The position numbers and the translations under genes were made by a program. Under the pieces are notes generated by a model. It did not search any database. It saw only the letters and a program-made list of their open reading frames with translations, and was not told the DNA's origin. Positions 21,106 to 40,832 of a stretch of DNA of 64,000 nt are shown piece by piece. The first letter of the stretch is position 1, and every line of letters starts with the position of its first letter. Origin of the DNA: a virus (Duplodnaviria > Heunggongvirae > Uroviricota > Caudoviricetes); IMG/VR virus record IMGVR_UViG_3300035670_000048, positions 1-64,000 of that record. The stretch is one strand, 5' to 3'.

Positions 21106-21197
21106 TGGTTAGGACAGGATTCGAACCTGTATGAGAGATAACCATTCCTTTATTCCCTCTATCTGTTAATTAGCGTCTACCATTCCGCCACCTAACC
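21106..21197 (-). tRNA. tRNA-like gene, 91 nt (type II-length). Anticodon not resolvable by eye.
   Basis: The RC reads GGTTAGG-TG-GCGG-AATGGTAGA-CGC...ACAGG-TTCGAAT-CCTGT-CCTAACC-A. It has a perfect 7-bp acceptor, a 3-bp D-stem and a canonical T-arm. I could not fold a standard anticodon arm. Confidence 0.55.
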
Positions 21198-21205
21198 GGG
21201 TACTC

Positions 21206-21367
21206 TTATTTTACCTTAACGAATCGACCGTTACGGATATCACGTTTGTGACGACGACCGAACTTGTCTACTGCTGTTTCGTAATACATGTTTGCGTATA
21301 CTTTATACACGTAATAACCTGCTACTGTCAATAGTGCTGCTGCACCTAAAATTTGAAATAATTCCAT
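21206..21367 (-). CDS. Small membrane protein. Start re-assigned to an internal Met.
   Basis: MELFQILGAAALLTVAGYYVYKV... The track start at 21427 would place the early motif (21384-21410) inside the gene. Confidence 0.45.
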   Translation of the reverse strand: MELFQILGAAALLTVAGYYVYKVYANMYYETAVDKFGRRHKRDIRNGRFVKVK

Positions 21368-21427
21368 ATGTTTGTTTTGTTTTTTTACTCTGTAAATGTA
21401 ATTAAGACATTTTTGTTTTCCCAGCAC

Positions 21428-21895
21428 AAAAAATTGTATAAAAAAAACATGATTAGACGTTTATTTAATCATCACCACCACCATTTAGACGGTCGTTGAA
21501 CCATTTAATCGCCATTTAGACGGTTGTCTAATCGTTTCACAACAAAAAAATGACACAAAATTGGACTGTTCTACTAAGAAAGCGTCTCCTTACATGTGAA
21601 CCCACCACCTTTGTGTGGGCTATTCTACTAATTTTAAAGTATATACAAAGTATTTATAAAAATGGTAGGAGGGGTGGGGAGAAAAATTGGAACACAACCC
21701 TTTACCACACCACCGTCATCTCCATTCATTCCACATACCATTACACATTTATATAATTACACGAACGTCTAATTACACATCCGTCTAACCACATTCCATA
21801 CTAACAAAAAAATATTCCACATCTACATAACACAAATATATGCGAAAAAAACGTGGGATCTACGTGGATTCTACACGAAAAAAACATGATCACTA
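21428..21895. promoter_or_regulatory. 470-bp non-coding region with iteron-like TTAGACGG / CCGTCTAA repeats (3 direct then 3 inverted) and CCACC-rich tracts. Candidate origin or regulatory hub.
   Basis: TTAGAC at 21453, 21486, 21517. GTCTAA at 21526, 21767, 21783. ccatttagacgg x2. Hairpin cccaccacctttgtgtggg at 21601-19. Tandem gtgggatctac/gtggattctac at 21852-74. Confidence 0.4.
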
Positions 21896-22291
21896 CTATA
21901 CGCGCGGCGCCTTACTTGCCGTACCATACATGTGATCATACACGGCTACCCACAATGCTAATCCAATCAACGTCGGCATTACGTGTTGCATTCCTAACGT
22001 ATCGTACAACCACGTCAATATATTAAAACCCGTATACACGAATAAAAACACAATCATCATTGCCACGAATGACTTTGTGAGGCGTTTCCACATCGGCGGA
22101 TAATCCGTGTTCGTGTTCGGTGTGTTAGTCTGAATATTATTATTTATTGTCTTTCTCATCTCGTCCGTCATGTTCGTTGTATTTATTGTTTGTTGTTTTA
22201 ATTGCTGTGCTGCTCGTTCCGCGTTTGCTAACACCTCATTTATTGTTTCCATTGGTAATGGATCACTATATGAATGCGATTTATTTACCAT
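21896..22291 (-). CDS. Membrane protein.
   Basis: 131 aa. C-terminal hydrophobic segments. Confidence 0.5.
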   Translation of the reverse strand: MVNKSHSYSDPLPMETINEVLANAERAAQQLKQQTINTTNMTDEMRKTINNNIQTNTPNTNTDYPPMWKRLTKSFVAMMIVFLFVYTGFNILTWLYDTLGMQHVMPTLIGLALWVAVYDHMYGTASKAPRV

Positions 22292-22542
22292 TGCATTTCA
22301 TCTGGGTTTATTGCTGGAACTGCATCCATTGTTTGATTTGTTATTTCACCTAATAAACTTAACATACTTAATGATTGCATACGTAATGTTGAATGTAGTT
22401 TACCTAATTCGAATCCTTGTTGCATTTTGTTGTTTTCCCCGACCGATAGCTTTTTTATGTCTTCTGCTGTATTAGCAAACATGCGTTCGTAATGTCTGAG
22501 ATCTCGTAACTGCTCGTGTGTTATGAAGTGTTTATTTTTCAT
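22285..22542 (-). CDS. Hypothetical protein. Start moved to MKNKHF so it couples (TATGAAAAATAA) with the upstream gene.
   Basis: The track ORF 22285..22626 overlaps 22532..22780 by 95 nt. The internal ATG gives a typical 11-nt overlap. Confidence 0.4.
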   Translation of the reverse strand: MKNKHFITHEQLRDLRHYERMFANTAEDIKKLSVGENNKMQQGFELGKLHSTLRMQSLSMLSLLGEITNQTMDAVPAINPDEMQW

Positions 22543-22780
22543 ATTGTTCGTTATAATATTGTAATCCACTATTGCCTGATAATTCCTCTTCACATCCTTC
22601 CCAAAACCCATTTTCCCATGATGCAATTATCTGCTCTTTCTCCTTTGGAAGTAGTTCCTTTGCTTTCTGATATACATCACCTGGATCCACTGGAATGACT
22701 TCGCTTTCTTCAATCATCCATTCCATTAACTCTTGTAGCGCTGTTTTATTTTTCATTGTATCTTGGATTATCTTTAACAT
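22532..22780 (-). CDS. Hypothetical protein.
   Basis: 82 aa ORF. Confidence 0.5.
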   Translation of the reverse strand: MLKIIQDTMKNKTALQELMEWMIEESEVIPVDPGDVYQKAKELLPKEKEQIIASWENGFWEGCEEELSGNSGLQYYNEQYEK

Positions 22781-22781
22781 A

Positions 22782-23087
22782 TTACTTTTTTGTTATTGCT
22801 TTACCAATTATATTAATTATTCTATTCCATCTCCATTCACTTTGTTTTTCTTCTATTGTCATTGGATACGGTTCTTCCTTTATGTTATCATTCACATTGG
22901 TATTACCATACGAACTCCACATCGCTTGAATATAGATTTGATGTAAGTGTGGCGGAATATCTTTGAACTCACCAATTATTGTAATTGGTAATTTCGTTCC
23001 ACTACCTGCTATTGTAATTGAGGAATTCATTTGAGCCTTTGTGCTGACTTGTATTGTTAAATGCTCACCTCCAAATGTTATACTCAT
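22782..23087 (-). CDS. Hypothetical protein.
   Basis: 101 aa ORF. Confidence 0.5.
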   Translation of the reverse strand: MSITFGGEHLTIQVSTKAQMNSSITIAGSGTKLPITIIGEFKDIPPHLHQIYIQAMWSSYGNTNVNDNIKEEPYPMTIEEKQSEWRWNRIINIIGKAITKK

Positions 23088-23088
23088 A

Positions 23089-23319
23089 TTATTTTAAGAA
23101 GAAGTCAAATGTTTGCTTAATGATGCTCATGTTTACTTCTTGGTAGATTAGCCATTTACACCATACAATGGGAGTAAATATGAAATCCATGATTGCCCAT
23201 CCAATACTATTGTGAATTGTGTATCCAATCATTGCCGTCGGCAATTGAATTAGAATGTATGGGAATGTAAATACCTTAACTGTTATTTTTTTATTTGTCA
23301 TTGTCTTGTTGTTTACCAT
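23089..23319 (-). CDS. Small membrane protein.
   Basis: 76 aa. Hydrophobic, Trp-rich. Confidence 0.5.
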   Translation of the reverse strand: MVNNKTMTNKKITVKVFTFPYILIQLPTAMIGYTIHNSIGWAIMDFIFTPIVWCKWLIYQEVNMSIIKQTFDFFLK

Positions 23320-23654
23320 CCACTATTCTCTACCCAACCTACTTCCTCTAATACATCATAAATCTTATCTAATGCGGTATGCATTTTATTTGTAGATTCT
23401 TTAAATTGATGATCACGTGCTTTCATACCTGCTTCATAAGCATAATGCATTAGGTAGTTAACGTATTTTTCTGTAAATCCGAATGAATCGGTTCCTGCTT
23501 CTCCTACGTGTCTGTGATATCCTTCATTGCTGAATTTTTCTTGTACGTATGCTTTCAACCATAGTATGTTTTGATCTACTTCGTTAGGTCGAGGCGATAA
23601 TTTAACTGCGCCTTCTTCTACTCGTTTCTTGTAAAAATCCCAAAATTCGCTCAT
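23313..23654 (-). CDS. Hypothetical protein.
   Basis: 113 aa ORF. Early motif at 23674-23701. Confidence 0.5.
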   Translation of the reverse strand: MSEFWDFYKKRVEEGAVKLSPRPNEVDQNILWLKAYVQEKFSNEGYHRHVGEAGTDSFGFTEKYVNYLMHYAYEAGMKARDHQFKESTNKMHTALDKIYDVLEEVGWVENSGW

Positions 23655-23673
23655 GATGTTTGTTTATTTATCT

Positions 23674-23701
23674 TATTACATTGTAAATGTAATTAGGAAA
23701 C
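23674..23701 (-). promoter_or_regulatory. Early promoter motif, class A.
   Basis: ttattacattgtaaatgtaattaggaaac. Confidence 0.6.
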
Positions 23702-24052
23702 TTAAAATTTACTAAATAGTTTATACCACCATTTTGATTTAATTGCTAAAAGTGGGTATGCTTTTTTCTGATAAGCGTCTACTGCTTCTTCCCATTTTTC
23801 TACATTCCCTACATGCTGAATATACATTTTATCAACTTCATCACGTAGTTCTTTTATAGCTTTATTCAACTCTACACCCTTACCGTAAATTCTGGTTTGG
23901 TATGTTGGATTTTCGGTCTTTCTACGATCAAGTATTACTAATTTAGCGTTTTGAAGTTCTATATTCATTTGAACCATTTCTTCATATTCCTTATTTTTAT
24001 TCATCAACCACTCATACTCGGATAGAGGCATTGTGATAGTTTTATTTTCCAT
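23702..24052 (-). CDS. Hypothetical protein.
   Basis: 116 aa ORF. Confidence 0.5.
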   Translation of the reverse strand: MENKTITMPLSEYEWLMNKNKEYEEMVQMNIELQNAKLVILDRRKTENPTYQTRIYGKGVELNKAIKELRDEVDKMYIQHVGNVEKWEEAVDAYQKKAYPLLAIKSKWWYKLFSKF

Positions 24053-24200
24053 TATCGTATGCTCTGAATACTGTTTTTAAATTATTGCGATCGGTTTGTT
24101 GCATTGCAACGTCTGTTAAGTGTTTGGATTTTTGTTTTACCATTTCACTTATCAATTCAAATGCGCGGTTTGTTTTTTCGGCTTGTGTTTTATTTGTCAT
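24042..24200 (-). CDS. Small ORF (52 aa) filling the gap between 24052 and 24190.
   Basis: Translated by eye: MTNKTQAEKTNRAFELISEMVKQKSKHLTDVAMQQTDRNNLKTVFRAYDNGK*. Couples with both neighbours. Confidence 0.3.
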   Translation of the reverse strand: MTNKTQAEKTNRAFELISEMVKQKSKHLTDVAMQQTDRNNLKTVFRAYDNGK

Positions 24201-24420
24201 TTTCGATACAATATTTTATTAATTTTTTACCTACGTTAGAGCTTTTAGCAATTGAATCACCTGTAATTAGTGATTCGATTTTCCAAGTTACTTCACCGTT
24301 TTTTTCGATTTTGATTACTTTATACTCATCATTATCTTCTTCATCGTAATCGTCGGTTCCAAAGTATATGTGGTATACTGTACTCTTGGCACATAGTTCT
24401 AGATATTTCTTATTTTCCAT
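24190..24420 (-). CDS. Hypothetical protein. Probably leaderless, as the motif abuts the ATG.
   Basis: 76 aa ORF. Early motif 24421-24443 starts 1 nt after the start codon. Confidence 0.5.
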   Translation of the reverse strand: MENKKYLELCAKSTVYHIYFGTDDYDEEDNDEYKVIKIEKNGEVTWKIESLITGDSIAKSSNVGKKLIKYCIENDK

Positions 24421-24443
24421 ATTGTAAATGTAATCTGGAAATT
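24421..24443 (-). promoter_or_regulatory. Early promoter motif, class A, abutting the start codon (leaderless arrangement).
   Basis: attgtaaatgtaatctggaaatt begins 1 nt after the ATG of 24190..24420. Confidence 0.55.
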
Positions 24444-24576
24444 TTATTCTTTCAAATCGTACACATAGTATCTAATTGGTACATCATCGCTACCGATGAA
24501 TTCTCTCATTTGCGGCTCGACTGGCATCTCTTCAAACATGCGTTGTGTTCCTTCCGGATCGGTTTGGAACATATAA

Positions 24577-24843
24577 TTAATTGTTGTTTGTAGGTAGATT
24601 TGCTTCATGAGGGATATCTTCTGTATACGTTTGCTTATTTGACTGGTATGTACTCATTGTTGTTCCACCTGTAGTGAAGTAATGGTAACGGCCATTGTCT
24701 AAGAATCGATATATTTTGATACCATCCTTTTCGAATAGGTATTCAACTTCAAATCCATCATCCTTACCTAATTGTTCTTTTGAAATCGGATCGTTTATAC
24801 ACGATGTAAGTAATAATGCTGCTACTAATGTTAGATATTTCAT
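24577..24843 (-). CDS. Lipoprotein.
   Basis: Signal peptide plus lipobox MKYLTLVAALLLTSCIND. Confidence 0.55.
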   Translation of the reverse strand: MKYLTLVAALLLTSCINDPISKEQLGKDDGFEVEYLFEKDGIKIYRFLDNGRYHYFTTGGTTMSTYQSNKQTYTEDIPHEANLPTNNN

Positions 24844-24844
24844 G

Positions 24845-25033
24845 TTATTTTAATTTATTTCTGAAATCACGTACTACTGCTGCTGCCTCGTAGTCTTCAA
24901 TCATCACTACTGAGCGTTCGATGTCTTCTAACATTGCGTCTGCGTTTCCGTTGAATTCCTCGTTAAGTATTTTCTTTAGTCTGCGTTTCGACGTTTTGTT
25001 TAATTTCATTTCGTCGATTAATCGTTCCATCAT
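24845..25033 (-). CDS. Hypothetical protein.
   Basis: 62 aa ORF. Confidence 0.45.
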   Translation of the reverse strand: MMERLIDEMKLNKTSKRRLKKILNEEFNGNADAMLEDIERSVVMIEDYEAAAVVRDFRNKLK

Positions 25034-25034
25034 A

Positions 25035-25337
25035 TTACAATTTGTTTTCTAATTCATTGATGAAATATAATGCGTCTGTTTTACCTCCGACATGGAATAC
25101 TTGTAATTCATTCATTGTGTACTCACGATCATATGTTTTCCAATCGTAGATAGTAAAGTAATCGTTTTTGAATTTAACTACCCATTCCACTTGTGTTTTA
25201 TCATCGAGTGATGCTTCGCTGAATGTAGGTGGACCTAACACTTCTACTAATCGTTTGTAAGTAGCGTGTGTATAGCCTTTTAATGATGTGCCGCATGTTT
25301 GATTTGATGCGAAGTCTTGATTTCTTAATGTTCTCAT
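25035..25337 (-). CDS. Hypothetical protein.
   Basis: 100 aa ORF. Early motif (class B) at 25350-25378. Confidence 0.5.
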   Translation of the reverse strand: MRTLRNQDFASNQTCGTSLKGYTHATYKRLVEVLGPPTFSEASLDDKTQVEWVVKFKNDYFTIYDWKTYDREYTMNELQVFHVGGKTDALYFINELENKL

Positions 25338-25349
25338 GTTTGCTCGTTT

Positions 25350-25378
25350 TTATTACAGATTAAAGATAATTAGGAAAT
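25350..25378 (-). promoter_or_regulatory. Early promoter motif, class B (+ strand form TACAGATTAAAGATAAT[TA]AGGAAAT).
   Basis: ttattacagattaaagataattaggaaat. Confidence 0.6.
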
Positions 25379-25379
25379 T

Positions 25380-25580
25380 CTATTTATCCAATATTATTGA
25401 ATTAAGTATATCAATTGATTCTGTTAAATCATATCCATACTCATCTAAGATTCGGATAAAATCATGTAAATTATTACATTGATTTAATTCCTTTCGTATT
25501 TGTTTCATTGGGAATGGTGGGGATGCTTCTTCTTCATCCATAATATGAAATAATTTGAGTCTTAAATCTTGGATTTCCAT
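25380..25580 (-). CDS. Hypothetical protein.
   Basis: 66 aa ORF. Motif at 25592-25620. Confidence 0.5.
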   Translation of the reverse strand: MEIQDLRLKLFHIMDEEEASPPFPMKQIRKELNQCNNLHDFIRILDEYGYDLTESIDILNSIILDK

Positions 25581-25591
25581 ATGTTTGTTTA

Positions 25592-25620
25592 TTTGTACAG
25601 ATTAAAGATAATAAGGAAAT
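25592..25620 (-). promoter_or_regulatory. Early promoter motif, class B.
   Basis: tttgtacagattaaagataataaggaaat. Confidence 0.6.
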
Positions 25621-25632
25621 TCTTAGATTGCC

Positions 25633-25845
25633 CTATGCGTAGCCGTTTTCGACTGCGTATCGTTCTAAATAGTCATGAATCGCATCAAACGGCTTGTCGC
25701 CTCTGTAATTGAATACATCGATTTCTTTACCATTACTGTACACACTGTACATTGACCCACCATTATTTTCAACTGTCATGTGGGTTAAATCAACATCACC
25801 GCACGTTACCCGATATATGGTAGATTTTTCTATTCCTAAATTCAT
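25633..25845 (-). CDS. Hypothetical protein.
   Basis: 70 aa ORF. Confidence 0.5.
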   Translation of the reverse strand: MNLGIEKSTIYRVTCGDVDLTHMTVENNGGSMYSVYSNGKEIDVFNYRGDKPFDAIHDYLERYAVENGYA

Positions 25846-25847
25846 GG

Positions 25848-26036
25848 CTATTTCTTTTTAGTTAGTGAAGCGATTTTAGCATTTAAGTCCTTAGCTATCA
25901 TTGCTGGGAATTTAATATCGTATAGAACGCGTTTGCCGTTTGATTCGGCGTCTGTGATTTCTTTCTCGAAATTTTCTTGCCATAACTCTAATGCTTGCTG
26001 GATTACGAATTGATCGTGTGCGTTTAACTTCTTCAT
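25848..26036 (-). CDS. Hypothetical protein.
   Basis: 62 aa ORF. Motif at 26062-26090. Confidence 0.5.
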   Translation of the reverse strand: MKKLNAHDQFVIQQALELWQENFEKEITDAESNGKRVLYDIKFPAMIAKDLNAKIASLTKKK

Positions 26037-26061
26037 GTTTGTTTATTTATTGGTTTAACTT

Positions 26062-26090
26062 TTATTACATCGTAAATATAATCTAGAAAT
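26062..26090 (-). promoter_or_regulatory. Early promoter motif, class A.
   Basis: ttattacatcgtaaatataatctagaaat. The preceding leader atgtttgtttatttattggtttaactt is near-identical to 28764-28791. Confidence 0.6.
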
Positions 26091-26330
26091 TTATAAATTC
26101 CTAAGAATAACTAATTTAGCGTCTACTTCTTCGGCGGTTAGTCCATGTAATACACCTGTTGCTACGGGAGTAGTAAAGTCGATAACTCCATCTTTATAAG
26201 TAGTCATCATATATGACTCGCCATCAAATGTTAATTTAGCAGCGTAATTATTAATGAATTGTATTCCGAATTCGGTTAAATTTGAATCCGTTGGATGTGG
26301 TCTGAATTCTAGTCTAGGTAGTATTTGCAT
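26091..26330 (-). CDS. Hypothetical protein.
   Basis: 79 aa ORF. A/T promoter-like box at 26331-26353. Confidence 0.5.
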   Translation of the reverse strand: MQILPRLEFRPHPTDSNLTEFGIQFINNYAAKLTFDGESYMMTTYKDGVIDFTTPVATGVLHGLTAEEVDAKLVILRNL

Positions 26331-26356
26331 GTCGTTTTATAATAAATATGGAGAAA

Positions 26357-26728: not shown

Positions 26729-26756
26729 GTTTTTATTTGTTTATTTGTTCTAACTT

Positions 26757-26785: not shown

Positions 26786-26795
26786 TTTTAAAAGC

Positions 26796-27345: not shown

Positions 27346-27399
27346 GTTTGTTTGTTTTAATACATTATAAATGTAATTAAGAAATTTATTTAATCCAAG

Positions 27400-27523
27400 T
27401 AGTCAGTACAGGATTCGAACCTGTGATAGTCTCCATCAGCACATTGATAAAGCAGAGACTCCGCCATTCCTCTCCAAGAATTAGCGTCAATGTTTCGGTA
27501 CGTGTTCCTCTCGCCACCTGACT
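27400..27523 (-). tRNA. tRNA-like gene, 123 nt (acceptor/D/T arms tRNA-like, with ~50 nt of extra internal sequence).
   Basis: RC: AGTCAGG-TG-GCGA-G...ACAGG-TTCGAAT-CCTGT-ACTGACT. The acceptor is 6/7 paired. It shares its 5' and 3' ends with the 21106 and 40691 elements. It contains an internal near-duplication (TGGCGAGAGG / AATGGCGGAG). Confidence 0.4.
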
Positions 27524-30688: not shown

Positions 30689-31408
30689 TTATTTTTTATA
30701 TGTATTAAATTTAATTTCACCGTTATCAATGATCATATACTCGCCTGATGTTCCTAATGTATCAATATAGTAGTAACGACCATTTGTTGATTTACCTTCA
30801 CGATCGATTTTATTCTGTTGAGTATGACCTACAACTTGAATGAACTGATCACGTAATGTATCACGATTAGCTTTCTGAAGTGATTTAGGACGAATCCAAA
30901 TTGGAGACGATTCAACACTATCACCATATGGACTCAATCCAGTAAATCTAAACGGACGTGATGATGAATCCCACATTTCGTTTATATTATCTGCTACATT
31001 ATCACCTTCTAAATGCAACATTTTCATCCAGTAAGTATACCAATCATTACTTACACCAGCGTGAGTGAATAGATAACCATCCATTTCGTATGCCATCTGT
31101 AGGTGTTCTGTATTATTGAATAATAAATCATTAATAGCTGGAGCAGCACCGGCTTGATATCCACTATAACGTTCTGAGCCATCCATATAATGAAAGTCAT
31201 GATTACCAACTAATATGATTACCTCTGCTTTGTCTGATAATTTGAAGTTAATTATCTGTTCAAAGTTTGACATCTGCTCGGCCGCAGTATAATCATCGTA
31301 TGAATCAAAGTAATCTCCAATGAATATAACTCGATCTGGTTGTTCGTCTATTACGATTTGCTTCCAGCAATCACGACCATGGATATCACCTATTACAACT
31401 GTTTTCAT
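30689..31408 (-). CDS. PPP-family Ser/Thr or diadenosine-tetraphosphatase-type metallophosphoesterase.
   Basis: Signature motifs GDIHGR ... GDYFDSY ... GNHDF. Confidence 0.65.
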   Translation of the reverse strand: MKTVVIGDIHGRDCWKQIVIDEQPDRVIFIGDYFDSYDDYTAAEQMSNFEQIINFKLSDKAEVIILVGNHDFHYMDGSERYSGYQAGAAPAINDLLFNNTEHLQMAYEMDGYLFTHAGVSNDWYTYWMKMLHLEGDNVADNINEMWDSSSRPFRFTGLSPYGDSVESSPIWIRPKSLQKANRDTLRDQFIQVVGHTQQNKIDREGKSTNGRYYYIDTLGTSGEYMIIDNGEIKFNTYKK

Positions 31409-32955: not shown

Positions 32956-34071
32956 TTAATGACTATCTCCAACGTCTTTCTTTTCAGCATAGATGTGGTA
33001 GTCGGGATTAATTACTTTGGCTACTTTACTTCTATCACCTGATTCCTCTTTGATAACGATACCTTCATGTGGTACTTTAGTGCCGTCAATGAATTGATTG
33101 AATGTAAATGCATCTTGTACTTCTTGAGACCAGAACCCTCTATACAGTAACTCTACATAATGTAATTTTAAAGTAGCGATCTCACTGTCTGATCGATGTA
33201 CTGATAAGTATTTACCATCCACCTCAACATCAAATCCTACAAACTCGATATCATCTAAACCATATTCATAATTCTTTTGGATACCTTTACCGAATACTTC
33301 TCCATAAACGATAAAACCAGTACCAATCAATTCAGGTGAATACCATGTTTTAACATGAGCCCATAATTTGTCTTTGATATCATATCGATCAGCAATTGTT
33401 CTCCATACATCAGTATCATAGAATCCTTGTGTATCAGATCCTTTTTCAACGTTGTGTGAGCCATAAATGAACTCATAATTAGCCCATTCATTACCGAAGA
33501 ATTTCCTTACTTTATCCCACAATGATAACTTATTCTTCTTGATAATACCGTAACGAGCATTTGTACCATGAATCTTACGAGTAATTTCTACTACGTCGTC
33601 TTCAGTAAACATATTAGGTACGTTCTTGAAGTTAGGGAACTTATAGTAAACGTGGAAATTTGGATTATCCTTGTATTTAATCTTACGTCCACCTGCTAAT
33701 TGTACTTGTCTAACTGGTGGTTCATATTTGTAGATACCTAACTCCTTCATCAAATCATCACCCTCATCATGGAATGTTCTAATATAACCATAAGGAATAA
33801 TTAAACATTCAGAATAAACACCACGTAATTTAATAGTACGTACACGTCCGCCTTTACGTAAGTAATTAGTAACACCGATTCGGTCAGATAATTCTTCAGG
33901 AATGATAGCGTCTGTAGTAGCGATAACTGCTTTTTGATCTATATAGTATTCGCCTTTCTTACTGATGCAATTCCATCCGTTTACTACTACTAATTCGATG
34001 TTGTCTGCTCCGTCAATCGGTTTGATGTCGGTAACTTTACCTACGAAGCATACTGAGTTATTGTTTTCCAT
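32956..34071 (-). CDS. ATP-dependent RNA ligase (Rnl2/Rnl5-like nucleotidyltransferase with an N-terminal OB-like extension).
   Basis: 371 aa. Covalent nucleotidyltransferase motif I KIHGTN (KxHG) at ~residue 165. N-terminal ~150 aa VGKVTDIKPIDGADNIELVVVNGW... resembles the OB domain of Rnl5-type ligases. As I recall it, T4 Rnl2 carries KIHGTN. Confidence 0.55.
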   Translation of the reverse strand: MENNNSVCFVGKVTDIKPIDGADNIELVVVNGWNCISKKGEYYIDQKAVIATTDAIIPEELSDRIGVTNYLRKGGRVRTIKLRGVYSECLIIPYGYIRTFHDEGDDLMKELGIYKYEPPVRQVQLAGGRKIKYKDNPNFHVYYKFPNFKNVPNMFTEDDVVEITRKIHGTNARYGIIKKNKLSLWDKVRKFFGNEWANYEFIYGSHNVEKGSDTQGFYDTDVWRTIADRYDIKDKLWAHVKTWYSPELIGTGFIVYGEVFGKGIQKNYEYGLDDIEFVGFDVEVDGKYLSVHRSDSEIATLKLHYVELLYRGFWSQEVQDAFTFNQFIDGTKVPHEGIVIKEESGDRSKVAKVINPDYHIYAEKKDVGDSH

Positions 34072-35051: not shown

Positions 35052-35215
35052 AATTCGATTTTTTTAATTTTACCACATTTAGTACACATTAGTATTTGTC
35101 TTACTTTATATGGTCTATTTTCTTTATCACTATGAAATATATTTACCTCATCATGTATTTTCCATTGATGCATACAACCCCATTTAGCTAGTATTTGATT
35201 GATTAGTTCTATCAT
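35048..35215 (-). CDS. Small zinc-ribbon-like ORF (55 aa).
   Basis: Translated by eye: MIELINQILAKWGCMHQWKIHDEVNIFHSDKENRPYKVRQILMCTKCGKIKKIEL*. Confidence 0.3.
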   Translation of the reverse strand: MIELINQILAKWGCMHQWKIHDEVNIFHSDKENRPYKVRQILMCTKCGKIKKIEL

Positions 35216-35601
35216 AATTTAATTTGGAATCTATGTAACATATTACCTATTGATGCTGCAGGAACATTATGTATTGATTCATTACCATGACGATTCTCTA
35301 CAATCAACGAATGAACACGATAACCGTATTTAGCTGCTAATTCATAATAATCTTTCATTTCCCATTCCTGAGTAAATGTGTTTGCTACTACAATTTTAGC
35401 ATCGTTATCTGTCATCCAATCCTCAACTACATCACGACACCACTTATGTGCTGCTGGTAATCCGCGTTGATTAAATTCATATTCGCCTGTTTCTTCATTG
35501 ATAAAGTACATATCTGCTTCGATATGTCTATTAGCTAATAATTCTGCTAATGTTGTTTTACCAGCACCTGGTAATCCTCTTAATAATATTAAATCTTTCA
35601 T
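35212..35601 (-). CDS. P-loop kinase (AAA_33 / polynucleotide-kinase-like). Start re-assigned to MKDLILL...
   Basis: Walker A LRGLPGAGKTT at the N-terminus. The track start at 35661 would run through the promoter motif 35599-35623. Confidence 0.5.
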   Translation of the reverse strand: MKDLILLRGLPGAGKTTLAELLANRHIEADMYFINEETGEYEFNQRGLPAAHKWCRDVVEDWMTDNDAKIVVANTFTQEWEMKDYYELAAKYGYRVHSLIVENRHGNESIHNVPAASIGNMLHRFQIKL

Positions 35602-35623
35602 AATATGAAGATAATTAAGAAAT
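35599..35623 (-). promoter_or_regulatory. Early promoter motif, class B (short), abutting the kinase ATG.
   Basis: cataatatgaagataattaagaaat. Confidence 0.5.
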
Positions 35624-35884
35624 TTAATAATGTAAATCCAAATAAAAACATTCTTTATCATCTAGGTATGTAACCGGACTCCAAACTGCGGAATATTGGT
35701 TATCCCATTCTGGATATATTGGGTCTGGTTTCTTTAAAGTTTTCCATCCACGTTCTTCATAATATATATCTTCTACTCTCTGTGATACTACCAATGCATC
35801 ATCTGGATAATCTTTCAAATATTCTTTTAATTCACCTACTGTTAGATAATGTAGATGTTTTTCTTTAAATTCCTTCGGTGTCAT
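35624..35884 (-). CDS. Hypothetical protein.
   Basis: 86 aa ORF. Confidence 0.45.
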   Translation of the reverse strand: MTPKEFKEKHLHYLTVGELKEYLKDYPDDALVVSQRVEDIYYEERGWKTLKKPDPIYPEWDNQYSAVWSPVTYLDDKECFYLDLHY

Positions 35885-36083
35885 TATTTATTTGTTTAAT
35901 TATGGTTCGATTTATAGGAAATGAAGCAACGATAGTTTTCATGTAAGTGCTTTTTTGTTCAATTTTAAATGTATAACATCCGTTATTGTAATCATATCCA
36001 TCCGCATCTATTTCATATTCAACAATTCCACCACTACCACCTTGGATAGTTCCCGTAATTACATCTAAATAATATCTTTTCAT
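35865..36083 (-). CDS. Hypothetical protein.
   Basis: 72 aa ORF. Confidence 0.45.
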   Translation of the reverse strand: MKRYYLDVITGTIQGGSGGIVEYEIDADGYDYNNGCYTFKIEQKSTYMKTIVASFPINRTIIKQINNDTEGI

Positions 36084-36085
36084 AA

Positions 36086-37231
36086 TTAAAATCCAATCTT
36101 ACGTTTTGTATCTGCGGCTTTGTACTCGATTTCCTGTAAATTGTAAATTTCAGTTAATGTCATGTCATCAGTAGCGACGTGATCCATTCCTAAATGTTTG
36201 ATTAATTTATTAGCATCATCAACATTTAATTTATCGAATTTATGTTCAGCAATTAATCTACCTTTACGTAATAGCGCTGTATCAATCTTCTTACGATCCA
36301 TATTAAACGTGGCGACTATTTGAATGTTTAGTATGTCTCCCAGAATACCGTCAGTCAAGTTTAGTATGTTAGATACACCGTTGGCTCCGTTAGTATCTCG
36401 GTCAGTAATAACACGTTCAGCATCTTCAATGAATAGAATCGAATCACTATTTTCAATTAAAAACGGAGTCATCTCAGGTGAGGTGATGAAATCCACCAAA
36501 TATGGTGGGACGAACATCACCTTCTTGTCCTTGATTTTAGATGCTAAGTATTTTAAGTAGTGTGTCTTACCAGTACCTGGCTCGCCATGTAGTAGTACTA
36601 ATCCTTTACCTTTCTTCTGATTTAATGTTGATAATATCTTATCATGAATCGGAGTAAATGATGAACCGTAATTGTGTTCTAAATCTAATTTTTGCTTAGG
36701 CAGATCGAATGTTTGAGTATCATATCCGTGACGTGTCTGAACGATCAATGATATGTTATTTTCTCTCCTAGGTTTCTTTTTTAGAATCTTAAGTAAATCA
36801 GTACGTAATAATTCATATCCATCTAAGCTAATATTTGAGTATAGAGAGAGTGATGTATCATTATAATCATCTTCTTCGTCTTTAGATTTATTAACTTCAT
36901 TATATGGAGATAATTTTATCATCACTATGCTACTTCCACCATTATTATCATTAACTAATTTACTAAATACTTTAGTTGATGAATGTTTTTTGAATGAAGT
37001 ATAGTCTAAACTATGTACTTCATCAAATTTCCAAGTAGATAACCACTCATCCATTTCCTTAAGATTAAATGAATATCCTGATAGGTATTCATGCTTATTA
37101 ATCCAATGTCCGGTCTTATTTATAGCATAATGAGCATAAGGAAAATCCTCATGATCGACGTTATGGAATGGAGTTGTATTCATTGTTTCGTGTTTACCTT
37201 TAGTTAAATCAGTTATACTTATGTAAGTCAT
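36086..37231 (-). CDS. AAA+ ATPase (classic AAA: Walker A/B, second region of homology) with an N-terminal domain of unknown function.
   Basis: VLLHGEPGTGKTHYLKYLA ... ILFIEDAERV ... ATFNMDRKKIDTALLRKGRL. Confidence 0.6.
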   Translation of the reverse strand: MTYISITDLTKGKHETMNTTPFHNVDHEDFPYAHYAINKTGHWINKHEYLSGYSFNLKEMDEWLSTWKFDEVHSLDYTSFKKHSSTKVFSKLVNDNNGGSSIVMIKLSPYNEVNKSKDEEDDYNDTSLSLYSNISLDGYELLRTDLLKILKKKPRRENNISLIVQTRHGYDTQTFDLPKQKLDLEHNYGSSFTPIHDKILSTLNQKKGKGLVLLHGEPGTGKTHYLKYLASKIKDKKVMFVPPYLVDFITSPEMTPFLIENSDSILFIEDAERVITDRDTNGANGVSNILNLTDGILGDILNIQIVATFNMDRKKIDTALLRKGRLIAEHKFDKLNVDDANKLIKHLGMDHVATDDMTLTEIYNLQEIEYKAADTKRKIGF

Positions 37232-37244
37232 TATACAACTCGTT

Positions 37245-37478
37245 TTATAGTTTTAAATACCACGCTGTGAATTTTTGGATTAATCCAACAATACTTCTTA
37301 TGATCAGTACTACAATAGTTATAAACCATATACATGAAAGTACAGTATATGCTTCTTCATTACTATTCCAATCATAGTGATCATCATCGAATCCAAATGT
37401 TTTACCAAAGAATTTAAAAAATGTCAATGTGAGGAAAAACCCAATTAGATAAATTCCTATAATATATAATAATATCAT
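37245..37478 (-). CDS. Small 2-TM membrane protein.
   Basis: 77 aa. Two hydrophobic helices. Confidence 0.5.
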   Translation of the reverse strand: MILLYIIGIYLIGFFLTLTFFKFFGKTFGFDDDHYDWNSNEEAYTVLSCIWFITIVVLIIRSIVGLIQKFTAWYLKL

Positions 37479-38176
37479 TATACAACTCGTTTTACGTGAT
37501 GATCAAATTCGAATCCGGATTTAACTGGTCTTGGATTCATTAATGTTAATACTTTATTTAACGATATTGGATCCATTCCATTACCATCAACACCTACATC
37601 CATCATTTTACCTTTACCAATACGACGTTCTGGAGGTAAGTGGACATGTCCGTGTAAGTGAATTACATTCTCATTCATGTTATTCCATGACATGATTGGG
37701 TAATGCATCAATACGAAGTTATGTTCTTTATTTATATTTAATTCAACATATTGGTTAACTGATGAGAATATATGTCTAATTCCATCACGATCACGTTCAA
37801 TATGATGATCGTGATTACCTAATACTAAGTGAATATTCTTACAATTAATACGGTCACGGAATTTTTGGATTGATTCAAACCCACCAAACGACCAATCACC
37901 TAAGTGAAATAAGATATCATCTGGACCTACTACTTCGTTAATTCCATTTACAATTCGATCATTCATTTGATCTAATGTTTTGAAATCACGAGTAATATCT
38001 TCAGCATCAGTCCATCGAGTCACTCCTCTACAAATGTTAGTGTGATTATAGTGGGTGTCTGAAGTGAAGTATAGTCGTTGGGTAGGTTCTAATTTAATTT
38101 TCATCATTGAATTTTCCAAATAAATCCTCGCCTTTATAGTCTGGATGGTTTTTGTGCATGTAATCAATCCCACCAA
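37478..38176 (-). CDS. Calcineurin-type binuclear metallophosphoesterase.
   Basis: Motifs YFTSDTHYNH ... HLGDWSFGG ... VLGNHDHH ... HGHVH. Confidence 0.6.
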   Translation of the reverse strand: MVGLITCTKTIQTIKARIYLENSMMKIKLEPTQRLYFTSDTHYNHTNICRGVTRWTDAEDITRDFKTLDQMNDRIVNGINEVVGPDDILFHLGDWSFGGFESIQKFRDRINCKNIHLVLGNHDHHIERDRDGIRHIFSSVNQYVELNINKEHNFVLMHYPIMSWNNMNENVIHLHGHVHLPPERRIGKGKMMDVGVDGNGMDPISLNKVLTLMNPRPVKSGFEFDHHVKRVV

Positions 38177-38227
38177 CCCACATCCAACAGATATAGGCTA
38201 GTAATGGTAGTATAAGTAATATAATCG

Positions 38228-38407
38228 CTACCATATCTCTAACGCTGTTTTAGGAGTATTAGATTTAATATGTGATTCGCTTAAATTATATTTAAGTAAG
38301 TACTCACGTTTCTGACGAGCATAATACTCGTTCAATTCCTTATCAATTGATGATATTACAGTTGTAGGATACTGTTTGATATTGAATATATCTTTTTTGG
38401 CTGTCAT
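38228..38407 (-). CDS. Small ORF (59 aa).
   Basis: Translated by eye: MTAKKDIFNIKQYPTTVISSIDKELNEYYARQKREYLLKYNLSESHIKSNTPKTALEIW*. Class B motif at 38423-38444. Confidence 0.3.
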   Translation of the reverse strand: MTAKKDIFNIKQYPTTVISSIDKELNEYYARQKREYLLKYNLSESHIKSNTPKTALEIW

Positions 38408-38422
38408 AATAATTATTTTATG

Positions 38423-38444
38423 TTTTAAAGATAATGAGGAAAAG
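38423..38444 (-). promoter_or_regulatory. Early promoter motif, class B, placed immediately after a terminator hairpin.
   Basis: ttttaaagataatgaggaaaag. Confidence 0.5.
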
Positions 38445-38457
38445 GGGCCGAAGCCCC
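38444..38457 (-). terminator. Rho-independent terminator after 38465..39268.
   Basis: ggggccgaagcccc. On the gene strand GGGGCTTCGGCCCC is followed by TTTTCCTCATTATC. Confidence 0.55.
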
Positions 38458-38464
38458 TTACCTC

Positions 38465-39268
38465 TTAAACTACCTCGGCGTACTCGCTTACATACTGATC
38501 TGCTAATTCCCACAATCCGGAATTGAATTCGATGTCTTGGGTAAAGTTCTTTAACGCTCTTGCTTTACGTGTTTTACCTTTTTCGTTTTGGTAGTTAAAA
38601 CCACCACCAACTAACTTCTCTTGGACACGGTTCAGAATTGCCCACATCGACATACCAGCATCTTCTTTACGTTCAACTACTAATAATTGATCTGTATTAA
38701 TCTCTTTTAAATTATCACCAAAACGCAACTGAGCTGCTTTAGCTGCAAACGCATTTGCTAATTCATCTGAGATTTCGATTTCATTGAATTTATTAATACG
38801 ACCAACTACATCAGGTAAACGTTCTACCATTGTATGAATTAATGAACGTAATGTTTCGAAATCATAACCTTGATGGCGGATTTTTAATGTGCCTAAATCC
38901 TTATCTTTAATCACTAAACCGTTTGAACATACTAAACGGAAAATACCTACTTCAAATCTAAATGTAGACGAACCATCATGTGAATTGGTTAATAATACTT
39001 CAATGTATGAATCTACATTTCCGTTTGCATCAGCCATATACACACCCTCGTTTCTGAATTTAACTAAGTGTTTCTTAATTGCTGAATTGCCACCCTTACG
39101 GGCCTTAACACCAACTGCTTGAACGGGTTCCCATCCTAATTTTCTCATGTCTTCCACTACTTGAATAGTAGGGATTTGAGTGTAATGATCTGATAATCCG
39201 GCTTTATGCTCGGTAGATATTACTGCAGGTGCTAAATTTGCGATTTGATCGTTTGATAAAATGTTCAT
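38465..39268 (-). CDS. Hypothetical protein.
   Basis: 267 aa ORF. Terminator hairpin directly downstream (38444-38457). Confidence 0.5.
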   Translation of the reverse strand: MNILSNDQIANLAPAVISTEHKAGLSDHYTQIPTIQVVEDMRKLGWEPVQAVGVKARKGGNSAIKKHLVKFRNEGVYMADANGNVDSYIEVLLTNSHDGSSTFRFEVGIFRLVCSNGLVIKDKDLGTLKIRHQGYDFETLRSLIHTMVERLPDVVGRINKFNEIEISDELANAFAAKAAQLRFGDNLKEINTDQLLVVERKEDAGMSMWAILNRVQEKLVGGGFNYQNEKGKTRKARALKNFTQDIEFNSGLWELADQYVSEYAEVV

Positions 39269-39296
39269 TTGATATTTGGTTTAATTGTTTAACTTA

Positions 39297-39324
39297 TTTT
39301 ACGAGTTAAAGATAATGAGGAAAG
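39297..39324 (-). promoter_or_regulatory. Early promoter motif, class B.
   Basis: ttttacgagttaaagataatgaggaaag. Confidence 0.55.
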
Positions 39325-39334
39325 CTCTTACTTC

Positions 39335-39553
39335 CTAGTACTTGTAAGATGATTTAGTTTCAATTTCTTCTTCTGTTACTTCTGGTTTTGAGTAAGTATA
39401 AGGTACTACTGTATAACCCATTGTTTCAAGCATTGCTCTTAAATTCGATACTTTAGGATATGCCATTTTCTCTAATTCGGATCCAATTCCTTTTAATAAT
39501 AGCATTTCTTTGTAGTCACGAGCAGTTTTACGGTTGGCGGATGTGTTTTCCAT
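39335..39553 (-). CDS. Hypothetical protein.
   Basis: 72 aa ORF. Motif at 39587-39613. Confidence 0.5.
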   Translation of the reverse strand: MENTSANRKTARDYKEMLLLKGIGSELEKMAYPKVSNLRAMLETMGYTVVPYTYSKPEVTEEEIETKSSYKY

Positions 39554-39586
39554 TTGTTTGTTTTGGTTTTAAGTTAAAAATTTATT

Positions 39587-39613
39587 TTATAATGTAAATA
39601 TAATAAGGAAAAT
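39587..39613 (-). promoter_or_regulatory. Early promoter motif, class A.
   Basis: ttataatgtaaatataataaggaaaat. Confidence 0.55.
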
Positions 39614-40234
39614 TTAAATACTTTGGTAAGCTTCTCTAATCTTTTTACGTACTGTATCACGATAATCGTCTGCGGCAGCGATGATTTCGTTACGGGATGA
39701 ATTCCACAACTCCAATTCTGCTTTACGACGGCGTACTAATCCTCTACTAACGCGTCCACTAGCCATTTTATATTGTAGTAAATAAGGCTCAATATCACGT
39801 CCACGCTTAATTGCTTTACCTAATCCATCAGTTGCGAAACGCATTCCGATATTGAATGCTATCATTGATGTTAGTATAACTTTCTTACGAGATTTGAGTT
39901 CAGGGAAACGACGTTTAACGTCTTTAATGAATTTAGTATAATCCTTATCAAATAATTCGTCTGCTTCTCTAACTGATATGCCGTGTCTGTATTTAGAACG
40001 TTCGGCTTTAGTCATAACGTGACCCCAACCAATAGTCCATTTACCACCTTGGCATTTATACGGTTTTAATTTTAATGATTCTTCTGATTTGATGAATAAA
40101 GCAGCTGTATTATAGAGTTTGTCGTCTGACGTTTCTGCTACTTCAATAATTTCTGGTTCGACTGTGGGTCTGTGTTTTTCATTGTAACCCATCCACAATG
40201 CGGCTAACATAGCCGTTACGACTATCTTTCTCAT
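39614..40234 (-). CDS. Phage lysozyme (GH24, T4-lysozyme-like) with an N-terminal hydrophobic signal/anchor.
   Basis: SEESLKLKPYKCQGGKWTIGWGH aligns with T4L E11...D20...T26 ([21 protein letters not shown]). The catalytic Glu and Thr are present, and the Asp20 position is Cys. N-terminus MRKIVVTAMLAALWMGY. Confidence 0.6.
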   Translation of the reverse strand: MRKIVVTAMLAALWMGYNEKHRPTVEPEIIEVAETSDDKLYNTAALFIKSEESLKLKPYKCQGGKWTIGWGHVMTKAERSKYRHGISVREADELFDKDYTKFIKDVKRRFPELKSRKKVILTSMIAFNIGMRFATDGLGKAIKRGRDIEPYLLQYKMASGRVSRGLVRRRKAELELWNSSRNEIIAAADDYRDTVRKKIREAYQSI

Positions 40235-40307
40235 AAGTAATGTTGGTTAAATTGTTAAACTTATAATCTAAAGTTAATTAAGAAAGTTATACTTTCAAAA
40301 TTGTAAA

Positions 40308-40373
40308 GAGAGACTTCGGGTCTTTCAGGGTTACTGATGATGAGTGCAGGCTTAAAGTCGTATTACTAACCCT
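40308..40373 (-). terminator. Two adjacent stem-loops downstream of the tRNA-like pair (candidate terminator or processing structure).
   Basis: gagagacttcgggtctttc (7-bp stem, TTCGG loop). On the gene strand it is followed by TTTACAATTTTG. agggtta-N32-taaccct at 40327-40373. Confidence 0.35.
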
Positions 40374-40430
40374 TTTTCCAACCTATACCTCGTAAGCTCA
40401 TCACTACAGCTTCGCTCATCTCTCTTTATG

Positions 40431-40575
40431 TGGTTCTAATGGGAATCGAACCCATGATGTTAAGTCACTTACTTCAATCAACTACTCCTTATTGTGTACA
40501 CCTTAGAGCCTTTTCGATTGACCGTCACGTTAACCCACTCATTGCTTTTGGAGCGACCTCAACAACTATAGAACC
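40431..40575 (-). tRNA. tRNA-like element, 145 nt, with a perfect acceptor stem and T-arm but ~70 nt of extra internal sequence.
   Basis: RC: GGTTCTA-...-ATGGG-TTCGATT-CCCAT-TAGAACC-A. The 7/7 acceptor pairs with sequence 138 nt away. The interior is not foldable as a D/anticodon arm by eye. Confidence 0.35.
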
Positions 40576-40690
40576 ATATTTGATGTCTTTCCATCAGTCA
40601 CTAATTATTATGTCACGTTTCTGTTTTAGCCTATATTTAGGTTTCTGCAAGTGTTTCCGTATTACACGGAGGGCATTAGTTCACCCACTG

Positions 40691-40832
40691 TAGTCAGGAC
40701 AGGATTCGAACCTGTAAATTGCTAATCGTTGTGAGCCTATATAGCATTCATCTCACCGCTTCTACGATTGCGTATACCAATGCTTTTTTATTACTTGCAA
40801 TTAATATATAGCATATATTCCGCCACCTGACC
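40691..40832 (-). tRNA. tRNA-like gene, 141 nt. Same family as 21106 and 27400, with a ~37-nt insertion in the D-loop and a ~27-nt hairpin insertion in the anticodon-arm region.
   Basis: RC: GGTCAGG-TG-GCGG-AAT[ATATGC...AAGCAT]TGGTATA-CGC-AATCGT...[GGTGAG...CTCAC]...ACGATT...ACAGG-TTCGAAT-CCTGT-CCTGACT-A. Acceptor 7/7 (one G-U). Confidence 0.4.

Follow-up and report, generated by a model that had tools for sequence, protein, structure and literature searches.

Expanded tRNA-like elements with conserved ends and exchangeable middles: a large, apparently undescribed RNA family of uncultivated phages

The stretch analysed here, called the window below, comprises positions 1 to 64,000 of the IMG/VR virus record IMGVR_UViG_3300035670_000048, a tailed phage of the Caudoviricetes, and carries five expanded tRNA-like elements that we refer to as E1 to E5. 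We consider it rather probable that E1 to E3 are members of a large family of non-decoding tRNA-like scaffold RNAs specific to phages, and that E4 and E5 represent two sister families of it. Four of these loci had been placed at the same positions and on the same (minus) strand by an initial annotation of this DNA; E5, which was missed there, was revealed by a motif scan of the window. Of the explanations offered by that annotation, a paralogous family of tRNA-like non-coding RNAs is strongly supported, with hundreds of copies across a clade of uncultivated phages; its suggestion of decoy RNAs is a live candidate for their function, and that of primer RNAs found no support. The elements and the ordinary tRNA used as comparator are as follows.

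E1, 21106..21197, minus strand: 92 nucleotides (nt), with acceptor GGUUAGG/CCUAACC, A73, the Leu-type D arm GCGGAAUGGUAGACGC and T arm ACAGG-UUCGAAU-CCUGU.
E2, 27400..27523, minus strand: 124 nt, belonging to a conserved subfamily, with GAGAGGAACACGUACCGAAACAUUGA in place of the D region.
E3, 40691..40832, minus strand: 142 nt, its D loop holding an inserted 37-nt hairpin and its anticodon position an expanded hairpin.
E4, 40431..40575, minus strand: 145 nt, of a separate small family, with acceptor GGUUCUA/UAGAACC, A73 and T arm AUGGG-UUCGAUU-CCCAU.
E5, 62434..62585, minus strand: 152 nt, of a third family, with acceptor UGUAGUG/CAUUACA, G73 and D arm GCGAAAUUGGCAGACGC, lying 129 nt upstream of the tRNA-Met.
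tRNA-Met(CAU), 62231..62304, minus strand: ordinary tRNA scoring 62.2 bits, the comparator.

E1 to E4 each have a 7-base-pair (bp) acceptor followed by a discriminator base, and a T stem of 5 bp capped by a UUCRANY loop; the acceptor of E2 is mismatched at 7:66 (G7.A66). E1 and E3 also have a D arm with G18G19, which in E3 is arranged around the 37-nt insert; in E2 the D region is replaced, yet a GG is retained. The initial annotation had described termini common to E1, E2 and E3, and these are indeed shared, reading 5′ (G/A)GT(T/C)AGG-TG-GCG and 3′ ACAGG-TTCGAAT-CCTGT-(C/A)CT(A/G)AC(C/T)-A. Its dissection of E3 also holds: the D loop is interrupted between AAU and UGG by a 37-nt hairpin, and a 34-nt loop, itself containing a further hairpin, is capped by an ATCGT/ACGAT stem. 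So do the perfect 7-bp acceptor stem and the T arm (likewise perfect) that it gave for E4, and its view of the tRNA-Met as ordinary. The length it gave for E4 is correct, but the first three elements are each 1 nt longer than it claimed when the discriminator base is counted, and the internal near-duplication it saw in E2 is merely an 8-nt repeat (GAGAGGAA) whose second copy falls in a stretch that is unconserved in E2 orthologues. E2 has a 3′ hairpin, GAGUCUC/GAGACU, with a 21-nt loop (UGCUUUAUCAAUGUGCUGAUG). In E1 a 42-nt middle stands in place of the anticodon arm, and its minimum free energy fold retains the acceptor stem, the T arm and a hairpin in the middle (z = -2.54); the folding z-score of E4 is -2.25. 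The motif GGTTCRANTCC, for which 3.6 occurrences would be expected in the window, is present 14 times, a number that no shuffle attained.

Standard tools largely pass over these elements. On the window, ARAGORN in default mode and an Rfam scan at gathering thresholds each reported the tRNA-Met alone, and none of the four loci of the initial annotation was called an ordinary type II tRNA by ARAGORN in its default and intron modes. With laxer filters the Rfam tRNA model gave E1 40.6 bits, skipping the anticodon arm as a 31-nt local insert, and on E2 to E4 it matched the T arm alone. Also, Rfam 15 run on the window and nine array-rich loci returned no family other than the tRNA model.

To place the elements among relatives, 80 loci were collected from IMG/VR around relatives of the RNA ligase gene of the window (L-numbers below denote collected related loci). 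Many of these ligase-anchored loci have 15-25 ordinary tRNAs upstream of the ligase, as compared with the single tRNA-Met of the window. In or near these tRNA arrays the ends of E1 to E3 recur, as 5′ (A)GTCAGGTGGCGGAAT(T)GGTAGACGC and 3′ ACAGGTTCGAATCCTGTCCTGACTA, around middles that vary greatly in length and sequence. The exact 22-nt 3′ motif is found in at least 120 IMG/VR stretches, and L090, with 7 copies in one 5-kilobase (kb) stretch, has the most per stretch among the matches listed. From the matches listed and the ligase-anchored loci we extracted about 237 distinct copies of 58-180 nt, on which all counts were made in Python; it may be noted that this census is biased by the retrieval motif. 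In a screen of 185,579 bacterial and archaeal species (one genome per species), the 3′ motif occurs in 18 places, all of them contigs of metagenome-assembled genomes mostly binned as Bacteroidota. No isolate genome of that set has it, in a tRNA or otherwise, and therefore the family is phage-specific; an origin from a host tRNA was rejected on the same ground. No GenBank phage record has both family ends. Full-text literature searches found no description of the family, an absence which is no proof of novelty, and a large screen of structured RNAs in viruses names generic 'tRNA-like' candidates only (PMC10690425).

The family shares one frame, made up of a near-invariant 7-bp acceptor (AGUCAGG/CCUGACU) with A73 and C74, a D arm of tRNA-Leu type and a canonical T arm. 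The genes do not encode CCA, their trailers beginning with C and then A or U. Across 217 copies the acceptor pairs 1:72 to 7:66, the T-stem pairs, the T loop UUCGAAU and U8 are near-fixed, A73 being present in 201 and U48 in 177. The retrieval bias concerns the 3′ 25 nt of the motif-retrieved copies; in the ligase-anchored loci, which are independent of the motif, 26 of the 29 copies have CCUGACU with A73 and 27 have AGUCAGG. The D stem covaries, with GCG/CGC, GUGU/ACAC, GCUU/AAGC, GCUC/GAGC and ACG/CGU all represented. Where pairs of the acceptor and T stems deviate, G:U is seen 58 times and A:C 5 times, and therefore the gene strand is the strand under selection. The acceptors of true tRNA-Leu(UAA) and tRNA-Lys genes vary freely in the same phage clade (GCCGGAG, GGCCGGG, AUCCCUG, GCCUCGG) whereas the family acceptor is kept, and therefore a constraint acts on the acceptor sequence that ordinary tRNAs escape. 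That the acceptor sequence is fixed may be due to a dedicated partner, to recombination that homogenises it, or to the two together.

What is missing from this frame is the anticodon arm. A canonical one (5-bp stem, 7-nt loop, U33, R37) was found in 1 of 181 parsed copies and in none of those in the window. The sole canonical copy, at 13031-13101 (minus strand) of L122, is a tRNA-Lys(UUU) with the exact family acceptor and T arm (Rfam 66.3 bits, ARAGORN 122.5), which could be either the ancestral form or a recombinant with a real anticodon arm placed in the frame. The shortest members (69-78 nt) have stems with 3-6-nt loops, GNRA tetraloops included, and ARAGORN gives about 50 members in the collected loci arbitrary anticodons with scores near threshold. 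It is almost certain that family members cannot read codons, and they probably serve a different purpose.

In place of the anticodon arm lies a structured domain of about 25-130 nt that is specific to the lineage and may be accompanied by an additional D-loop hairpin. The 237 middles fall into 174 similarity clusters, have a G+C content of 40% against the window average of 32%, and fold better than dinucleotide shuffles (mean z = -0.68, n=171, p ~1e-15). Some subfamilies are kept in distant phages and have compensatory changes. In that of E2, for which eight distinct sequences were aligned, the 5′ module GAG-GGAACACGNNCCGAAACAUUGA is kept, as is the 3′ hairpin, pair 91:117 occurs as C-G, U-A or A-U, 94% of cells are paired as compared with 32-41% with slid partners, and four pairs have changed on both sides. 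A 7-bp pseudoknot (ACAUUGA/UCAAUGU) is also possible in this subfamily, its sequence being invariant and so giving no covariation. Hairpins between A14-A15-U16 and G18G19 of the D loop, as in E3, are gained or lost within subfamilies (L132 as against L185, L212 as against L163), and behave like expansion segments at the solvent-exposed position of the tRNA elbow.

Close relatives of the window show how fast these units turn over. For E3 and E4 the relatives were anchored on the phosphoesterase gene at 41070-41789, to which the amino acid (aa) identities given below refer; the features beside the two elements are these.

Leader upstream of E3, 40833..40957, minus strand: 125 nt, with an AUUUUGG...CCGAAAU hairpin.
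Hairpin UGAUG-GAAAGA-CAUCA, 40581..40596, minus strand: 5 nt upstream of E4.
Element X, 40305..40427, minus strand: 123-nt structured region directly 3′ of E4, closed by AAAGAGAGA/UCUCUCUUU.

In L228 (99% aa identity) E3 is 100% identical, the spacer between E3 and E4 57%, the GAAAGA hairpin 100%, E4 92% and X 96.8%, and one extra family member is found 3′ of X. In L229 and L232 (97% and 80%) the leader is kept and a single different member replaces E3, E4 and X, which are lost as one indel block; the replacing member has the acceptor GAUCAGG/CCUGAUC, that is, two compensatory changes, plus a D-loop insert. The whole block from E3 to X is missing in L230 and L231 (93% and 91%). At the E2 locus, the relatives compared have a downstream 64-aa protein that is identical; five of them (L308, L310, L311, L312, L314) show an empty site, where ...GAAAAGTAA runs directly into AAATTTCTTAATTAC..., as against ATAATAC, E2 and CTTGGATTAAAT in the window. 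L309 has a different member within the same flanks, and no target-site duplication is seen at this site. At the E1 locus three contigs are identical to the window, and L320 has the same flanks and frame around a 68-nt middle unrelated to the 42 nt of E1. Genomes gain, lose and replace whole units, and within a constant frame they swap cores. Judging from their sequences, the conserved D and T arms may act as the recombination arms; ORFs (open reading frames) resembling GIY-YIG and T5orf172 endonucleases are among the commonest neighbours of members. The insertion elements proposed by the initial annotation are borne out in so far as elements and middles come and go between near-identical genomes, but the mobile part is the tRNA-like unit or its core and not an insert in a normal tRNA.

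Such turnover could also be expected if the elements worked as DNA, as recombination sites or miniature mobile cassettes with inverted termini (similar to attC sites or miniature inverted-repeat transposable elements) whose tRNA shape is a relic. Precise presence, absence and replacement at the same site, termini that are sequence-invariant inverted repeats, the endonuclease-like neighbours, and a length variation of 58-180 nt with conserved ends that resembles attC sites all fit this possibility. The pairing is, however, strand-specific, as the ratio of 58:5 for G:U to A:C shows, and the nucleotides of the tertiary contacts (G18G19, the T loop UUCGAAU and U48) are conserved although a DNA site needs none of them. 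Also, the copies in the window are all co-oriented with the genes, the E2 site lacks a target-site duplication, and the neighbours with which copies alternate in arrays are tRNAs and not ORF cassettes. On balance we regard a function at the DNA level as unlikely.

The setting of the elements in the window bears on the further alternatives. The window is AT-rich and nearly all its genes lie on the minus strand, as do all five elements; its ORFs translate normally under table 11. It has many small ORFs, besides genes for GroEL, an RNA ligase, glycosyltransferases, a PD-(D/E)XK nuclease and a lysozyme, a gene content that fits a large phage. No DNA-level match to the window was obtained in GenBank phages with megablast and blastn. 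The RNA ligase is at most 29% identical to any isolate-phage ligase and has 127 relatives in IMG/VR, on contigs of up to 304 kb. The features relevant here are listed below.

RNA ligase gene, 32956..34071, minus strand: between E2 and E3.
AAA_33 P-loop kinase, 35212-35661, minus strand: between E2 and E3.
Three calcineurin-type phosphoesterases, 30689-31408, 37478-38176 and 41070-41789, minus strand.
Intrinsic-terminator-like hairpin GGGAGCC-CGU-GGCUCCC with a U-rich tail, 21050..21066, minus strand: 40 nt 3′ of E1.

The ligase, the kinase and the three phosphoesterases make up an RNA-repair-like set, which adjoins DUF932 and lysozyme genes and is given as context only, a link to the elements not being demonstrated. 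A comparable gene set is described for RNA repair in jumbo phages by Iyer et al. (PMC7824862). E1, E2 and E5 start 5-8 nt past the stop codon of a small upstream ORF (8 nt for E1, 7 nt for E2); an exact-protein look-up of the ORF upstream of E1, as delimited, gave no record. Against an expectation of 1.5, the window has 20 occurrences of an intergenic motif, TTTCTTAATTAMNTTTA, 19 of them on the minus strand; this motif is probably the phage's own promoter or regulatory box. Its sites include 27368-27384, 40269-40285, 41050-41066 and 21393-21409 (minus strand), each just 5′ of a small gene. It is found 3′ of E2 and of X, the tRNA-like elements sitting immediately upstream of such boxes. With a terminator-like hairpin after E1 and the motif after E2 and X, we therefore infer that the elements end small transcription units.

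This position invites the view that the elements are processing punctuation only, RNase P cleavage setting the 3′ ends of the upstream mRNAs and the released RNA being a by-product, in the manner of MALAT1/mascRNA or of mitochondrial punctuation. The starts of E1, E2 and E5 just past a stop codon and the ends of transcription units ahead of the next promoter-like motif agree with it. But punctuation needs neither an invariant acceptor nor subfamily middles that are conserved and covary, tandem arrays reach 7 copies without intervening ORFs, and sister genomes lack the element at the same gene junction, so that we give this view a small probability.

The initial annotation had also considered small introns in tRNAs, that is, genuine tRNA genes interrupted by short introns or inserts and spliced to normal decoding tRNAs. 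The outer frame is a good tRNA, a ligase, kinase and phosphoesterases are encoded nearby, D-loop hairpins come and go between orthologues, and ARAGORN with option -i can force E1 to Phe(AAA) with a 14-nt intron and E2 to Val(GAC) with a 29-nt intron. These forced folds, however, have threshold scores (101 and 104) and mismatched stems. Removal of the extra sequence yields no anticodon loop, as no excision position recreates a conserved one, and the members of 69-78 nt already have their loops of 3-6 nt; a canonical arm in 1 of 181 copies is equally against splicing. Counts of bulge-helix-bulge motifs (3, 6, 4, 5 and 12, against shuffle means of 2.8, 7.2, 9.0, 10.6 and 10.2) show no excess. In Rfam E-value scans no intron family matched at E <= 10, and group I introns are far larger than these inserts. 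Also, several copies per genome with one acceptor identity would be senseless for tRNAs of different codons. We therefore hold introns to be very improbable.

Whether any of the elements could still decode is best considered with E5. Relatives of E5 lie directly 3′ of tRNA-Ser(UGA) in L015, L057, L078 and L080 and about 100 nt downstream of it in L053, and L038 and L223 also have a member. The E5 family has U1:A72, G73, a covarying D stem, a T stem with a bulged U and a three-helix domain of about 75 nt at the variable-arm position, with compensatory changes in 19 of 45 predicted pairs. Its anticodon-like stem, CCCUC/GGGGG (CCUUC/GGAGG in one relative), carries an invariant loop, CUGUCUC, which we take to be that of E. 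coli tRNA-Asp (CUGUCAC) save for position 37. Aspartate identity elements include G73 and G34-U35-C36 (PMC9976931). E5 is without the G1-C72 pair typical of bacterial tRNA-Asp. Further members with the acceptor UGUCAGG/CCUGACA link the E5 family to the main family. Functional decoding tRNAs with unconventional anticodon arms, serving recoding, frameshifting or suppression, would thus find some backing in the tRNA-Asp-like loop of E5, and in the main family in a few plausible loops (the tRNA-Lys(UUU) of L122, and a CUUAAGU loop on an extended stem in L152, L161 and L193). In the main family, however, loop sizes and sequences are essentially random, canonical geometry is missing in 180 of 181 copies, and the ORFs of the window read through normally under table 11. 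Decoding is most unlikely for the elements at large, E5 being the only one for which it may hold.

Decaying pseudogenes left from the large tRNA arrays of related phages, as the elements' location in or near such arrays and the lone tRNA-Met of the window might suggest, are hardly credible, since the ends are better conserved than those of functional phage tRNAs of the same clade, the middles as well as the D, T and acceptor stems show compensatory changes, E3 is unchanged in L228 beside a spacer of 57% identity, up to 7 copies occur per array, and the middles are G+C-richer than the window.

Several other structured regions accompany the elements. For E4 the exact 3′ motif has no match in IMG/VR, and a structural scan gave orthologues in L228 and in L227, the latter with a compensatory change from G2:C71 to A2:U71. 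Hairpins of the form stem-GAAAGA-stem, present in the window before E4 only, lie 4-8 nt upstream of many tandem-array units (L022, L090, L137, L141, L192) and could be a processing or leader signal. Element X has the inner pairings GUGAUGAG/CUCAUCAU and AGGGUUA/UAACCCU, includes CCCUGAAAGACCC, and has no Rfam match; a AACCCUGAAAGACC stretch resembling it is seen in L011 and within some family members (L068, L087, L139). The 125-nt leader that precedes E3 is kept in L228, L229 and L232, and accompanies every tRNA-like element seen at this locus; a tRNA in L053 has a similar stretch before it. Two ORFs lie in this region:

Micro-ORF MDEIYVEAILNGFNPFPEFEDEP, 40955-41026, minus strand: 23 codons, upstream of the leader.
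Mechanical ORF, 40748-40996, minus strand: 82 aa, overlapping the 5′ part of E3.

The C-terminal PEFEDEP of the micro-ORF is retained in L230 and L231, which lack the RNA block. The 82-aa ORF is probably spurious, since it lies over leader and RNA sequence that is exchanged or missing in close relatives. Around the tRNA genes, a fourth kind of expanded tRNA-like unit was seen upstream of tRNA-Met (L036 at 3352, L038 at 8088, L040 at 110 and L053 at 8427, plus strand); it reads UGCCGGAG-UG-GCGGAA, a 30-nt hairpin, AGACGU...CUCCGGCA, with a hairpin insert in the D loop and a non-canonical T loop, UAAUCAA. An inter-tRNA element, CUCAAGUACCCAUACCGCCAACGAUGGGCUAAGUAAGAUACAAUUCCG...GGGGAGUAGAAUGCUUGAG, recurs in the tRNA arrays of L015, L022, L065 and L080 and looks like another structured RNA; in L022 it has no Rfam match. 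The 129-nt spacer between E5 and the tRNA-Met (62305-62433, minus strand) has a G+C-rich hairpin, GGGGGACCGGGCUUUUUCAAAUCCCCC, and a GCUAGC...GCUAGA repeat, and is identical in L315-L317, three near-identical contigs.

Returning to the reading that we prefer, in which the family consists of non-decoding tRNA-like scaffold RNAs, the following course of events may be proposed. RNase P and 3′ trimming would excise the RNAs from the transcript, an excision that we attribute to the intact acceptor/T minihelix and the D/T elbow, and CCA would be added as on tRNAs. The tRNA part would be a handle for processing, stability and recognition, and the variable middle the working cargo, with cores or whole units exchanged by recombination between the conserved ends. 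The pace of this exchange suggests a role in conflict with the host, for example as a decoy or sponge directed at tRNA-acting host factors. From the identity elements they carry, most copies may also be leucylated by leucyl-tRNA synthetase (LeuRS). In E. coli, leucine identity resides in A73, A15-U48, G18G19, A20a and contacts of the D loop with the T loop, and variants of tRNA-Leu without the anticodon and variable arms stay active (PMC9976931). The combination of A73, U48 and D-loop motif is carried by 129 of 217 members, E1 included; E3 has A73 and U48, and its D loop, GGUAUA, failed the motif test.

A number of observations weigh against this reading or limit it. E2 is without U48 and the Leu-type D loop, and as it lacks part of the set, charging by LeuRS therefore cannot be general; nor does LeuRS account for the fixation of all seven acceptor pairs. 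Concerted evolution through recombination alone could keep the ends alike. Because copies were retrieved by the exact 3′ motif, the T arm and the 3′ strand of the acceptor look more invariant than they are, only about 30 copies being independent of the motif. The z-scores of the middles are modest, 26% of them being above 0, and some middles may be loosely constrained filler. A search for complementary k-mers between the middles of E1 to E5 and the 64-kb window gave few 11-12-mers above shuffle level and no convincing target, for which reason an antisense or guide role within the window was rejected. Clustering of 1,620 ORFs from 120 motif-anchored loci brought out no conserved protein partner, no cluster being found in more than 15 loci. 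Everything beyond conservation as RNA structure is what we infer from sequence.

A more specific form of the scaffold reading may be put forward tentatively, as a possibility that we ourselves find doubtful: a natural display on a tRNA scaffold, in which a fixed Leu-like frame with a dedicated sequence-specific partner presents interchangeable cores, shuffled via the ends, each of which hits a different host factor. The frame would then ensure processing, stability and perhaps leucylation, and the core would be aimed at, for example, tRNA-directed defence nucleases or transferases, which would be neutralised or reprogrammed.

Among known systems, the stable RNAs rnaC and rnaD (species 1 and 2) of phage T4 may be taken as the closest natural analogue, being phage-encoded, 119-139 nt long, situated in a tRNA cluster on the same strand as the tRNAs and without known function. 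rnaC ends in a canonical T arm, CCGGG-UUCGAAU-CCCGG, and the analogy is one of context and T arm only: the two are single-copy genes with no shared invariant acceptor, hypervariable core or core swapping, and by eye we saw no sequence similarity to the family. Closest in design is the tRNA scaffold that Ponchon and Dardel reportedly engineered for recombinant RNA expression. In this scaffold, examples of whose use are available (PMC3753655, PMC3401473), a foreign structured RNA takes the position of the anticodon stem-loop while the acceptor, D and T arms stay, and the cell processes and stabilises the product as it would a tRNA. It is man-made, whereas the phage family is natural, multi-copy and diversifying, and equivalent processing and stabilisation are what we predict for the phage RNAs. 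The closest biochemical precedent is E. coli tRNA-Leu without its anticodon arm, whose A73, A15-U48, G18G19, A20a and D/T contacts are kept in most members; the minimal tRNA-Leu molecules are laboratory constructs, however, and the fixed acceptor of the phage family is not a requirement of LeuRS. The viral tRNAs (vtRNAs, in TMERs) of murine gammaherpesvirus 68 are non-aminoacylated, non-decoding tRNA-like folds which are cleaved by tRNA-processing enzymes, which releases or matures an attached functional RNA. A tRNA-like module is likewise known in the mascRNA of MALAT1 (PMC8457004). These resemble the family as tRNA-like modules, of virus or host, that serve as processing handles, but they are eukaryotic (Pol III, RNase P, RNase Z), their cargo lies downstream and not inside, and they have no hypervariable core. 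YrlA is a bacterial or phage non-coding RNA with a mimic of the tRNA T arm and acceptor (PMC4201824); its termini form the Ro-binding stem and its tRNA-like module is internal, whereas the termini of the family form the acceptor stem. YrlA and bacterial Y RNAs were rejected on this ground and for want of an Rfam match, and no TROVE domain was found among 20 window proteins scanned. Transfer-messenger RNA (tmRNA) similarly has a tRNA-like T arm and acceptor mimic but needs G3:U70 and an mRNA-like ORF. It was rejected as well: ARAGORN found none, the Rfam tmRNA model matched 17-18 nt of T arm (15.2 and 6.8 bits against a gathering threshold of 47), and position 3:70 is U:A.

The family thus consists of virus-encoded tRNA-like RNAs that are apparently undescribed, and has a fair chance of being a categorically new system, one in which exchangeable modules are displayed on a natural tRNA scaffold. 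Phage tRNA genes are usually framed as codon supply or as escape from anticodon nucleases. Here a family that is abundant in uncultivated freshwater phages keeps all parts of a tRNA save the codon-reading one, and has diversified that part at a pace typical of host-virus conflict genes. As standard tools miss its members or call them tRNAs with arbitrary anticodons, tRNA counts and inferences on recoding in phage metagenomics are distorted. If the RNAs are processed and perhaps charged as predicted, they would be a natural precedent for the engineered tRNA scaffold, a source of compact stable structured RNA modules and a new RNA layer of phage-host interaction. Display on the scaffold, if true, would make them an equivalent in RNA of the anti-defence protein genes that evolve fast, as well as a new class of phage non-coding RNA.

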